Source of the DNA: Eledone cirrhosa
Taxonomy: Eukaryota
DNA length: 64,000 nt
NCBI GenBank assembly: GCA_964016885.1
Contig: OZ024740.1
Location: 231,570,001 to 231,634,000, forward strand
Direction of reading: 5' to 3'
Shown here: positions 35,917-39,152 of the stretch, one piece after another
Position numbering within the stretch: position 1 is the stretch's first letter
Layout: each line of letters begins with the position of its first letter
Translations under genes and position numbers: made by a program
The notes under the pieces: model-generated
What the model was told of the DNA's origin: nothing
Databases searched by the model: none
The model's input: only the letters and a program-made list of their open reading frames with translations

Positions 35917-36188
35917 TTAGAATTGGAACTCTGAAATAGCAATATATATATGGATGTATATATAATGTATTTTGCAATACACTTTATGCTTAATTAAAAG
36001 CATTTTGAAGACCGTAAGCTATTGTTTTAAAGTAGTGACAAATTCACTCACTTTGATCTCAGCAAACAGGGGAGATAAGCCGACAAGACTTGTTTCGCTT
36101 TGGTTGAAGCTTATCAAGGCCAACTACCCCACCTGTTTACTGAGATCATTGATGTTATATTCTTATAGAAATCTAGTAAATAATCAGA
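35917..36188 (-). mobile_element. Short left arm of the 316-bp retrozyme-like array, with one hammerhead on the minus strand (~36076-36122)
   Basis: Reverse complement of the 316-bp unit, starting at (TA)n. Confidence 0.88.
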
Positions 36189-39152
36189 TTTACTAGATTT
36201 CTATAAGAATATAACAATTTTGTCACTACTTTAAAACAATAGCTTACGGTCTTCAAAATGCTTTTAATTAAGCATAAAGTGTATTGCAAAATACATTATA
36301 TATACATCCATATATATATTGCTATTTCAGAGCTCCAATTCTAATTTTTAATTTCTGCCTGACCAACAACGCTCTGCATAATCAGCTCCTGATTATTTAC
36401 TAGATTTCTATAAGAATATAACATCAATGAACTCAGTAAACAGGTGGGGTGTTTGGCCTTGATAAGCTTCAACCAAAGCGAAACAAGTCTTGTCGGCTTA
36501 TCTCCCCTGTTTGCTGAGATCAAAGTGAGTGAATTTGTCACTACTTTAAAACAATAGCTTACGGTCTTCAAAATGCTTTTCATCAAGCATAAAGTGTATT
36601 GCAAAATACATTATATATACATCCATATATATATTGCTATTTCAGAGCTCCAATTCTAATCTTTAATTTCTGCCTGACCAACAACCGCTCTGCATAATCA
36701 GCTCCTGATTATTTATTAGATTTCTATAAGAATATAACATCAATGATCTCAGTAAACAGGTGGGGTAGTTGGCCTTGATAAGCTTCAATCAAAGCGAAAC
36801 AAGTCTTGTCGGCTTATCTCCCCTGTTTGCTGAGATCAAAGTGAGTGAATTTGTCACTACTTTAAAACAATAGCTTACGGTCTTCAAAATGCTTTTCATC
36901 AAGCATAAAGTGTATTGCAAAATACATTATATATACATCCATATATATATTGCTATTTCAGAGCTCCAATTCTAATCTTTAATTTCTGCCTGACCAACAA
37001 CCGCTCTGCATAATCAGCTCCTGATTATTTATTAGATTTCTATAAGAATATAACATCAATGATCTCAGTAAACAGGTGGGGTAGTTGGCCTTGATAAGCT
37101 TCAATCAAAGCGAAACAAGTCTTGTCGGCTTATCTCCCCTGTTTGCTGAGATCAAAGTGAGTGAATTTGTCACTACTTTAAAACAATAGCTTACGGTCTT
37201 CAAAATGCTTTTCATCAAGCATAAAGTGTATTGCAAAATACATTATATATACATCCATATATATATTGCTATTTCAGAGCTCCAATTCTAATCTTTAATT
37301 TCTGCCTGACCAACAACCGCTCTGCATAATCAGCTCCTGATTATTTATTAGATTTCTATAAGAATATAACATCAATGATCTCAGTAAACAGGTGGGGTAG
37401 TTGGCCTTGATAAGCTTCAACCAAAGCGAAACAAGTCTTGTCGGCTTATCTCCCCTGTTTGCTGAGATCAAAGTGAGTGAATTTGTCACTACTTTAAAAC
37501 AATAGCTTACGGTCTTCAAAATGCTTTTAATTAAGCATAAAGTGTATTGCAAAATACATTATATATACATCCATATATATATTGCTATTTCAGAGCTCCA
37601 ATTCTAATTTTTAATTTCTGCCTGACCAACAACCGCTCTGCATAATCAGCTCCATATTATTTACTAGATTTCTATAAGAATATAACATCAATGATCTCAG
37701 TAAACAGGTGGGGTAGTTGGCCTTGATAAGCTTCAATCAAAGCGAAACAAGTCTTGTCGGCTTATCTCCCGTTTGCTGAGATCAAAGTGAGTGAATTTGT
37801 CACTACTTTAAAACAATAGCTTACGGTCTTCAAAATGCTTTTCATCAAGCATAAAGTGTATTGCAAAATACATTATATATACATCCATATATATATTGCT
37901 ATTTCAGAGCTCCAATTCTAATCTTTAATTTCTGCCTGACCAACAACCGCTCTGCATAATCAGCTCCTGATTATTTATTAGATTTCTATAAGAATATAAC
38001 ATCAATGATCTCAGTAAACAGGTGGGGTAGTTGGCCTTGATAAGCTTCAATCAAAGCGAAACAAGTCTTGTCGGCTTATCTCCCCTGTTTGCTGAGATCA
38101 AAGTGAGTGAATTTGTCACTACTTTAAAACAATAGCTTACGGTCTTCAAAATGCTTTTCATCAAGCATAAAGTGTATTGCAAAATACATTATATATACAT
38201 CCATATATATATTGCTATTTCAGAGCTCCAATTCTAATCTTTAATTTCTGCCTGACCAACAACCGCTCTGCATAATCAGCTCCTGATTATTTATTAGATT
38301 TCTATAAGAATATAACATCAATGATCTCAGTAAACAGGTGGGGTAGTTGGCCTTGATAAGCTTCAATCAAAGCGAAACAAGTCTTGTCGGCTTATCTCCC
38401 CTGTTTGCTGAGATCAAAGTGAGTGAATTTGTCACTACTTTAAAACAATAGCTTACGGTCTTCAAAATGCTTTTCATCAAGCATAAAGTGTATTGCAAAA
38501 TACATTATATATACATCCATATATATATTGCTATTTCAGAGCTCCAATTCTAATCTTTAATTTCTGCCTGACCAACAACCGCTCTGCATAATCAGCTCCT
38601 GATTATTTATTAGATTTCTATAAGAATATAACATCAATGATCTCAGTAAACAGGTGGGGTAGTTGGCCTTGATAAGCTTCAATCAAAGCGAAACAAGTCT
38701 TGTCGGCTTATCTCCCCTGTTTGCTGAGATCAAAGTGAGTGAATTTGTCACTACTTTAAAACAATAGCTTACGGTCTTCAAAATGCTTTTCATCAAGCAT
38801 AAAGTGTATTGCAAAATACATTATATATACATCCATATATATATTGCTATTTCAGAGCTCCAATTCTAATCTTTAATTTCTGCCTGACCAACAACCGCTC
38901 TGCATAATCAGCTCCTGATTATTTATTAGATTTCTATAAGAATATAACATCAATGATCTCAGTAAACAGGTGGGGTAGTTGGCCTTGATAAGCTTCAACC
39001 AAAGCGAAACAAGTCTTGTCGGCTTATCTCCCCTGTTTGCTGAGATCAAAGTGAGTGAATTTGTCACTACTTTAAAACAATAGCTTACGGTCTTCAAAAT
39101 GCTTTTAATTAAGCATAAAGTGTATTGCAAAATACATTATATATACATCCAT
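36189..39152 (+). mobile_element. Right arm of the 316-bp array: one internally deleted unit plus 9 hammerhead-bearing units
   Basis: tgctatttcagagc at 36951, 37267, etc. (period 316); ends catcc into (TA)n; shares blocks with the 310-bp unit. Confidence 0.92.
36771..36814 (+). ncRNA. Type I hammerhead with a U3-A8 variant core (representative of 10 copies)
   Basis: GGCC-TTGATAA-GCTT-caatca-AAGC-GAAACAA-gtc-TTGTC-GGCT; outer stem GATCTCAGTAAACAGG/CCTGTTTGCTGAGATC. Confidence 0.85.

Follow-up and report, generated by a model that had tools for sequence, protein, structure and literature searches.

Two tandem arrays in the genome of Eledone cirrhosa carry hammerhead motifs that differ at one pair of core positions, one array having C3-G8 and the other U3-A8. 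This raises the question of what kind of element the U3-A8 array is, how it came to its place and whether the exchanged pair is an adaptation of the ribozyme. The window analysed here is the whole stretch of 64,000 nucleotides in which both arrays lie.

Tandem-repeat analysis of the 64-kb window delimited a 316-bp tandem array at 35917-39160, flanked by (TA)n runs and made of an inverted arm on the minus strand, a short junction piece and a direct arm of 9.3 units on the plus strand. With unit position 1 taken as the first base after the cut, the inverted arm (35917-36187) comprises unit positions 211-316 plus 1-166 and contains one U3-A8 hammerhead, with its core at 36117 and a predicted cut after 36082; a 26-nt tail sits on its outer end. 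The junction piece (36188-36216, plus strand, unit positions 217-245) forms a short palindrome with the inverted arm and is followed by a jump to unit position 40. The direct arm (36219-39160) holds nine U3-A8 hammerheads in its tandem 316-bp units, with cuts predicted after 36494, 36810, 37126, 37442, 37758, 38072, 38388, 38704 and 39020, and its outer end lies at about unit position 140 without a tail. The (TA)n target occupies 35869-35917 on the left side and 39138-39185 on the right side, where it merges into a TA-rich stretch of the unit itself. A near-perfect hairpin of ~110 nt was also observed between (TA)n runs directly after the array (39186-39296).

The unit was read against the criteria for a type I core (Y3-U4-G5-A6-N7-R8-A9, G12-A13-A14, A15.1-U16.1, H17 and a Watson-Crick 3-8 pair) and presents UUGAUAA, GAAAC and GUC with U-A as its 3-8 pair. 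A relaxed scan for UUGAUAA, helix II and GAAAC found ten sites in the array, nine of them on the plus strand (36459, 36775, 37091, 37407, 37723, 38037, 38353, 38669 and 38985) and one on the minus strand (36117). The hammerhead at 36767-36818 (plus strand) may serve as an example. Its helix I is GGCC/GGCU (36771-36774 with 36811-36814), U3 is 36775 and A8 is 36780, helix II is GCUU/AAGC (36782-36795) with a canonical G10.1-C11.1 pair, GAAAC lies at 36796-36800, and a near-palindromic helix III (ACAAG-U-CUUGU, 36799-36809) leads to the GUC cleavage triplet with a predicted cut after C36810. An earlier note had described this succession of UUGAUAA, helix II, GAAAC, helix III and GUC, and the relaxed scan recovered its first three elements at all ten cores; the motif is a hammerhead with a compensatory U3-A8 pair. 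The same note had warned that a CUGANGA descriptor would miss the family, and such a descriptor indeed undercounts hammerheads here by thousands of copies.

The best Rfam match of the 316-bp unit was Hammerhead_HH9 at 25.1 bits (E 1.9e-4), short of the gathering score of 52, and the C3-G8 sister unit matched the same model at 23.0 bits, likewise below threshold. Because the sister with its canonical core scores no better, the low score is not caused by U3-A8. Moreover, HH9 is a different, specialised family, so that a sub-threshold score does not bear on the type I class. Over the whole window, Rfam gave one sub-threshold hammerhead among the 150 of 201 matches listed.

The sister array at 19766-31017 is a C3-G8 retrozyme insertion with a 310-bp unit and 36 CUGAUGA cores, 29 on the minus strand and 7 on the plus strand. 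It shares the two-ended layout, its plus arm ending 165 nt and its minus arm ~125 nt past the cut. End-to-end alignment of the 316-bp and 310-bp units gave 205 identical columns of 324 and a score of 260, against 122 +/- 10 (maximum 151) for 300 dinucleotide shuffles. Judged by this alignment, the two units are homologous and collinear. The kinship of the two arrays proposed earlier is borne out by this score, and the sequence blocks then listed as shared were counted in 8-11 copies in the 316-bp array and in 35-37 copies in the 310-bp array. At its right end, the 310-bp array adjoins a fragment (31040-31130, minus strand) recognised by eye as a decayed terminal repeat of a Penelope-like element (PLE), of the type found at locus L096.

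The best-conserved superfamily block (GGTCTTCAAAATG ... GCTATTTCAGAGC) lies at 36880-36976 on the plus strand. It holds both insertion end points, at unit positions ~140 (36950) and ~166 (36976), and the tail corresponds to 36951-36976 in the window copy; the block may be the region that a PLE enzyme recognises and primes on. A 28-codon frame beginning at the conserved CAAAATG (36890-36976, and likewise in each unit) terminates, in families A and E, where the tail ends, and the 310 family has instead a 30-codon frame in another register. The 28-codon frame is, at most, possibly a remnant of a PLE start.

The 316-bp family is spread over many chromosomes of the 3.0-Gb genome, with 181 matches of up to 100% identity, and most full-length matches are 94-98% alike. 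The exact core pattern was found in 1,341 copies (reversed-pattern control, 0) and the superfamily block common to both arrays in 18,289 units, while subfamily representatives are 69-95% alike. The array itself has a GC content of 33-35% and ten cores, in agreement with the criteria applied for non-LTR retrozymes, namely tandem units of 150-450 bp with a type I hammerhead in each and GC under 50%. The ORF list of the window contains no frame of at least 120 aa in the array, and neither RT nor GIY-YIG is encoded there. The family is therefore dispersed, non-autonomous and devoid of a long reading frame, as a non-LTR retrozyme should be. The array is read, with a probability of roughly 0.8, as one insertion of a young genome-wide subfamily of non-LTR retrozymes with a functional type I hammerhead in each protein-free 316-bp unit, copied into (TA)n DNA by a PLE enzyme acting in trans. 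It is thus a known kind of element that carries a known core variant. No description of the family or of a U3-A8 tandem retrozyme was found in titles and abstract openings, and the supplements of PMC7229834 and a 2026 preprint could hold one. The unit is also present on contigs of three other organisms, whose library type is unrecorded, and no difference at core positions was found among the 40 of 42 matches listed.

In the young subfamily, 1,336 of the 1,341 copies have U3-A8, four have another base than U3, one has U3-G8 and none has C3-G8. Given the likeness of most full-length copies, this uniformity reflects mostly youth. Private mutations amount to 0.71 per site in the core vs 0.57 elsewhere, four loci having been picked for core changes, and the absence of shared core variants within this subfamily is weak evidence on its own. 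The other families are more informative; their tallies were made by eye on the first 100 matches listed, which span the first chromosomes only. The older subfamilies C/D (2,233 copies) gave 96 U3-A8, 3 U3-G8 and 1 U3-C8, and a U3-fixed pattern in the E/F background (359 copies) gave 91 A8, 7 G8 and 2 U8. In the sister E2 (466 copies), 86 C3-G8 were counted along with 6 C3-A8, 3 U3-G8, 2 G3-G8, 2 C3-U8 and 1 U3-A8. Single mutants are therefore seen at decay-level frequency only, Watson-Crick pairing between positions 3 and 8 is maintained from family to family, and no family descends from a mismatched state. The earlier note had named uncorrelated variation at 3 and 8 in homologs as evidence against its reading; in these subfamily counts the variation is tightly correlated. 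As far as sequence comparison can tell, this pattern is good though indirect evidence of a working ribozyme. A U3-G8 subfamily as wobble intermediate, to which a few copies had pointed, was considered and rejected, C3-A8 being as common as U3-G8 in the E2 background (6 and 3 of the 100 listed) and the U3-G8 members of families E/E2, five in number, being scattered on the tree (5 changes). The U3-G8 copies look like decay.

Selection on ribozyme structure had been proposed from the double change kept in all ten copies of the array. That part of the argument falls, since, compared with the second unit, seven of the eight full units show 0-6 differences (the remaining one has an indel) and such near-identity makes the ten copies one insertion, not independent evidence on selection. 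The claim is nevertheless supported by covariation among the relatives. In a set of 19 hand-picked representatives, 8 of 13 pairs changed on both sides and 88% of cells pair, figures inflated by related rows in a set that was chosen as intact and has five members misaligned in helix I and III. Only 21-46% of cells pair in slid-partner controls, and 0 of 500 shuffles reached the observed level. All three helices (helix I open) have covariation support, in line with a type I hammerhead, and U4, G5, A6, A9 and GAAAC are invariant at a mean column identity of 67%. Across the U3-A8 subfamilies A-D, the helices change on both sides: GCUU/AAGC, GCAU/AUGC and GUAC/GUAC were found in helix II, GGCC/GGCU and GGCU/AGCU in helix I, and AAG/CUU, AUG/CAU, AAGG/CCUU and AGAG/CUCU in helix III.

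Nearest-neighbour folding, which leaves out tertiary contacts and cannot score the active dimer because it is a pseudoknot, gave all eight representatives a most stable fold other than the monomer hammerhead, which lay higher by 2.6-8.8 kcal/mol (by 6.2 in the window copy). Each of the eight also has a self-complementary helix III, at -6.9 to -20.1 kcal/mol. An unfavoured monomer fold together with a self-complementary helix III fits dimer cleavage as known from repeats of newts and the axolotl (PMC7229834, PMC6155905), and by these predicted energies and this analogy the hammerheads most likely cut as dimers through helix III. A long stem predicted at 36744-36840 (plus strand) extends helix I and joins both sides of the cut, and the predicted circle is self-paired (z -5.8).

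Insertion anatomy was compared at 41 loci, many of them chosen for carrying both strands, so that the share of inverted insertions among them is not representative. Their 70 outer arm ends fall at ~140 (31) or at 160-178 (36), with 3 elsewhere, and nearly all abut (TA)n; insertions sit in (TA)n and often have an inverted arm. Of the two-armed loci, 29 in all, 25 combine a 140 with a 166 end, 3 have an off-site end, and the last, scored as 140/140, turned out on inspection to be mixed as well. Hence in 26/26 scorable two-armed insertions one arm ends ~140 nt and the other ~166 nt past the cut site, and the same site was used twice in none (p ~1e-6 for 25/26 under independent choice). The signature of PLEs consists of inverted truncated copies, junction palindromes and a tail confined to one end (PMC3846280, PMC8557442), and this tail corresponds in vitro to the stretch between two RT start sites (PMC11167929). 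The inverted arm, one-sided tail and AT-rich target observed here are those expected of a PLE-mobilised element. One locus (L040) contains a whole two-armed insertion twice, 2,451 bp apart with identical flank, a later segmental duplication.

Variants shared between arms were followed at 24 loci, where 41/118 informative states were discordant (35%); shuffled pairs were 88% discordant, with a minimum of 73% in 2,000. This suggests that both arms derive from one template molecule. In four loci (L032, L038, L051 and L054) variants recur in the two arms at equal distances from the outer end, which points to multimeric templates. The linked units carry damaged hammerheads in L032 and L038 (G3; A15.1 to U) and intact ones in L051, and conversion of one arm by the other at a later time would also explain L032 and L051. 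In the window's own array, the arms are discordant and a variant unit is present in blocks, and this array probably expanded after insertion.

For animal retrozymes, the papers cited here suggest that a PLE or LINE acts as partner and that the template is a circle, and they ask for work on the mechanism. In the mechanism favoured here, the tandem units would be transcribed and the hammerheads would cut after GUC, most likely as dimers via helix III, into monomers able to circularise, a step put forward because of the axolotl and newt analogy and the fold energies. A PLE reverse transcriptase/GIY-YIG endonuclease acting in trans would then cut (TA)n DNA and prime on the RNA at two fixed sites ~26 nt apart. 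Such priming would yield the observed anatomy, in which a direct arm is often accompanied by an inverted one and just one of the ends bears a tail, and some arrays would be lengthened afterwards by local tandem expansion. PLEs with RT plus GIY-YIG exist in the genome, one element having an open frame of 938 aa. No autonomous PLE similar to the unit was found among 38 distinct sites sampled from 10,598 endonuclease candidates, and local alignment of the 316-bp unit with the L096 terminal repeat scored below shuffles. A family E (C3-G8) retrozyme at L077 (2438-2871) occupies the TA run with which a PLE terminal repeat ends, which is consistent with a target preference common to retrozymes and PLEs.

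A more detailed joint version is offered as tentative. According to it, a single retrozyme RNA would be the template of each two-armed insertion through twin priming: the two ends of the cut DNA would be primed by a PLE dimer at a pair of fixed sites that lie 26 nt apart and exclude each other, and both polymerases would run in the same direction along a circle or multimer. Units would be linked mainly at dead hammerheads, so that the genome would record cleavage in vivo, and the 3-8 pair would have flipped between C-G and U-A more than once in the superfamily, in step with the 10.1-11.1 pair and the length of helix III. On this last point, a tree of 76 of the 122 classified copies (subsampled, positions 3, 8, 10.1 and 11.1 masked, unrooted and lacking an outgroup, bootstrap not fully settled) gave as best order 310/312 (C-G), F (U-A), E/E2 (C-G) and A-D (U-A), hence up to three switches. 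The AU test does not reject a single switch (p = 0.25), and with a rootless tree repeated switching is not established in number or direction. Family F, which has the longest end branches, is U3-A8, and the pair may thus be ancestral.

The earlier note had also called U3-A8 rare in natural hammerheads, which was not borne out. Several natural U3-A8 cores were reported by Perreault 2011, with prior in vitro activity noted in section 8 (PMC3088659), and Cervera 2014 counted ~1,300 U3-A8 motifs in S. mansoni PLE hammerheads (PMC4209133). Thousands of retrozyme units have the pair here, and it is common in PLE repeats. At 16 of the 38 sampled PLE GIY-YIG endonuclease sites, a U3-A8 hammerhead lies in the terminal repeat, downstream on the coding strand; the others had no such terminal-repeat hammerhead by motif scan. 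The 16 sites represent three hammerhead types, with proteins 40-56% alike to the L096 type, so that three autonomous PLE types of this genome carry U3-A8 in their terminal repeats. In the window, a PLE terminal-repeat fragment (63120-63345) has a minimal U3-A8 hammerhead (UUGAUAA at 63128, GAAAC-CG-GUA), and L077, L079 and L113 carry this type behind their GIY-YIG frames. We conclude that the 3-8 pair is held by selection and that U3-A8 is a permissive Watson-Crick alternative to C3-G8 which preserves the tertiary pair, a lineage trait common with PLE hammerheads and not a demonstrated rate-tuning device.

The earlier note had suggested tuned slower cleavage as a possibility; U3-A8 would then have been selected to slow or gate cleavage, for example leaving uncleaved multimers for reverse transcription. 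Subfamilies A-D do combine U3-A8 with G10.1-C11.1 and a longer helix III, the C3-G8 families having U.U or A-U at 10.1-11.1 and a shorter one, and U3 permits a competing pairing with the 5' strand of helix III in the predicted monomer; the matched variants of L032, L038, L051 and L054 are also what multimeric templates would leave. However, the link is not strict, since family F joins U3-A8 to A.A at 10.1-11.1, and the C3-G8 families show the same inhibitory predicted monomer folds. In addition, U3-A8 variants were already known as active in vitro (PMC3088659), and a pair so common in the sampled PLE terminal repeats may simply be inherited. Selection for slow cleavage thus appears unlikely.

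Somewhat less probable still is that the hammerhead is kept as a structure and its cleavage is unneeded, the fold serving protein binding or expression and the PLE enzyme copying uncleaved tandem transcripts. In vitro, hammerhead cleavage was unnecessary for PLE insertion, mutants being without effect, and cleavage needed protein (PMC11167929); L051 and L054 have matched variants in both arms, with intact hammerheads in L051. Nevertheless, the catalytic core is invariant across families that are 69-95% alike, and 3/8 mismatches left no lineage behind. The linked units of L032 and L038 are core-damaged, as active cleavage would leave, in only two cases, of which L032 is also explained by arm-to-arm conversion. 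Finally, that the repeat is an ordinary satellite spread by DNA-level recombination with the hammerhead as passenger is very improbable and as a means of dispersal largely refuted. In its favour, the variant-unit blocks of the window array fit expansion after insertion, but unequal crossing-over would not be expected to leave inverted arms, (TA)n targets and the same two end points in the unit from chromosome to chromosome, and the compensatory helix changes also speak against it.

The PLE-mobilised retrozyme favoured here has its closest relatives in the non-LTR retrozymes of animals (Cervera and de la Pena 2020, PMC7229834), which it resembles in its tandem 150-450 bp repeats, low GC, lack of LTR, one type I hammerhead per unit, range from partial monomers to long arrays and self-paired predicted circle. 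It differs by its U3-A8 core and its 4-5 bp near-palindromic helix III, and inverted arms with fixed two-site ends are not mentioned in the main text of that paper. On the other hand, expression and circles have been demonstrated for those retrozymes, whereas both are predicted here. The minimal hammerheads of the Schistosoma mansoni Cercyon PLEs (PMC4209133) and the cores of Perreault 2011 (PMC3088659) have the same U3-A8 pair and a helix III suited to dimers; the Schistosoma motifs are mostly single and heterogeneous, whereas the core described here lies in homogeneous tandem retrozyme arrays with C3-G8 sisters in the same genome. Endonuclease-bearing PLEs (PMC3846280, PMC8557442, PMC11167929) share the inverted 5'-truncated copy, the tail on one end, the junction palindrome, the AT-rich or microsatellite targets and, downstream of the hammerhead, a pair of neighbouring RT start sites, but unlike them the family has neither RT nor endonuclease frame and its tail is 26 nt vs 30-40. 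The same partnership, with retrozymes as non-autonomous PLE derivatives, is proposed in a preprint (bioRxiv 10.64898/2026.07.22.740005) that argues from co-distribution and phylogeny, mainly in vertebrates, whereas the evidence here is insertion anatomy.

To a ribozyme specialist, the core swap itself is unsurprising, and the use of the family lies in its insertion anatomy and its natural core variants. The insertions carry a PLE fingerprint at single-base resolution that gives two RT start sites and a target, testable by the existing in vitro PLE assay. The ladder of subfamilies with C3-G8 or U3-A8 and varied helix II and III offers natural material with which to examine if the swap is neutral or has been compensated.

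Several other features were found in the window. A third hammerhead repeat at 39518-41120 has a 438-bp unit in 2.9 copies on the minus strand plus an inverted piece; its core is CUGACGA with U.U at 10.1-11.1, a GUA cut site and TA-rich ends, and a further copy (87-88%) is present in L107. Hammerhead-like C3-G8 motifs were observed at ~60940-61015, as a head-to-head pair with a common palindrome, and singly at 63434, with a weak helix I. A frame at 55116-55829 (minus strand) contains what we take to be a calmodulin-type EF-hand exon, and the broken frames at 3000-8200 and 12300-16100 are presumably LINE-like reverse transcriptases. Finally, a 25-bp minisatellite of 27 copies occupies 9838-10522.
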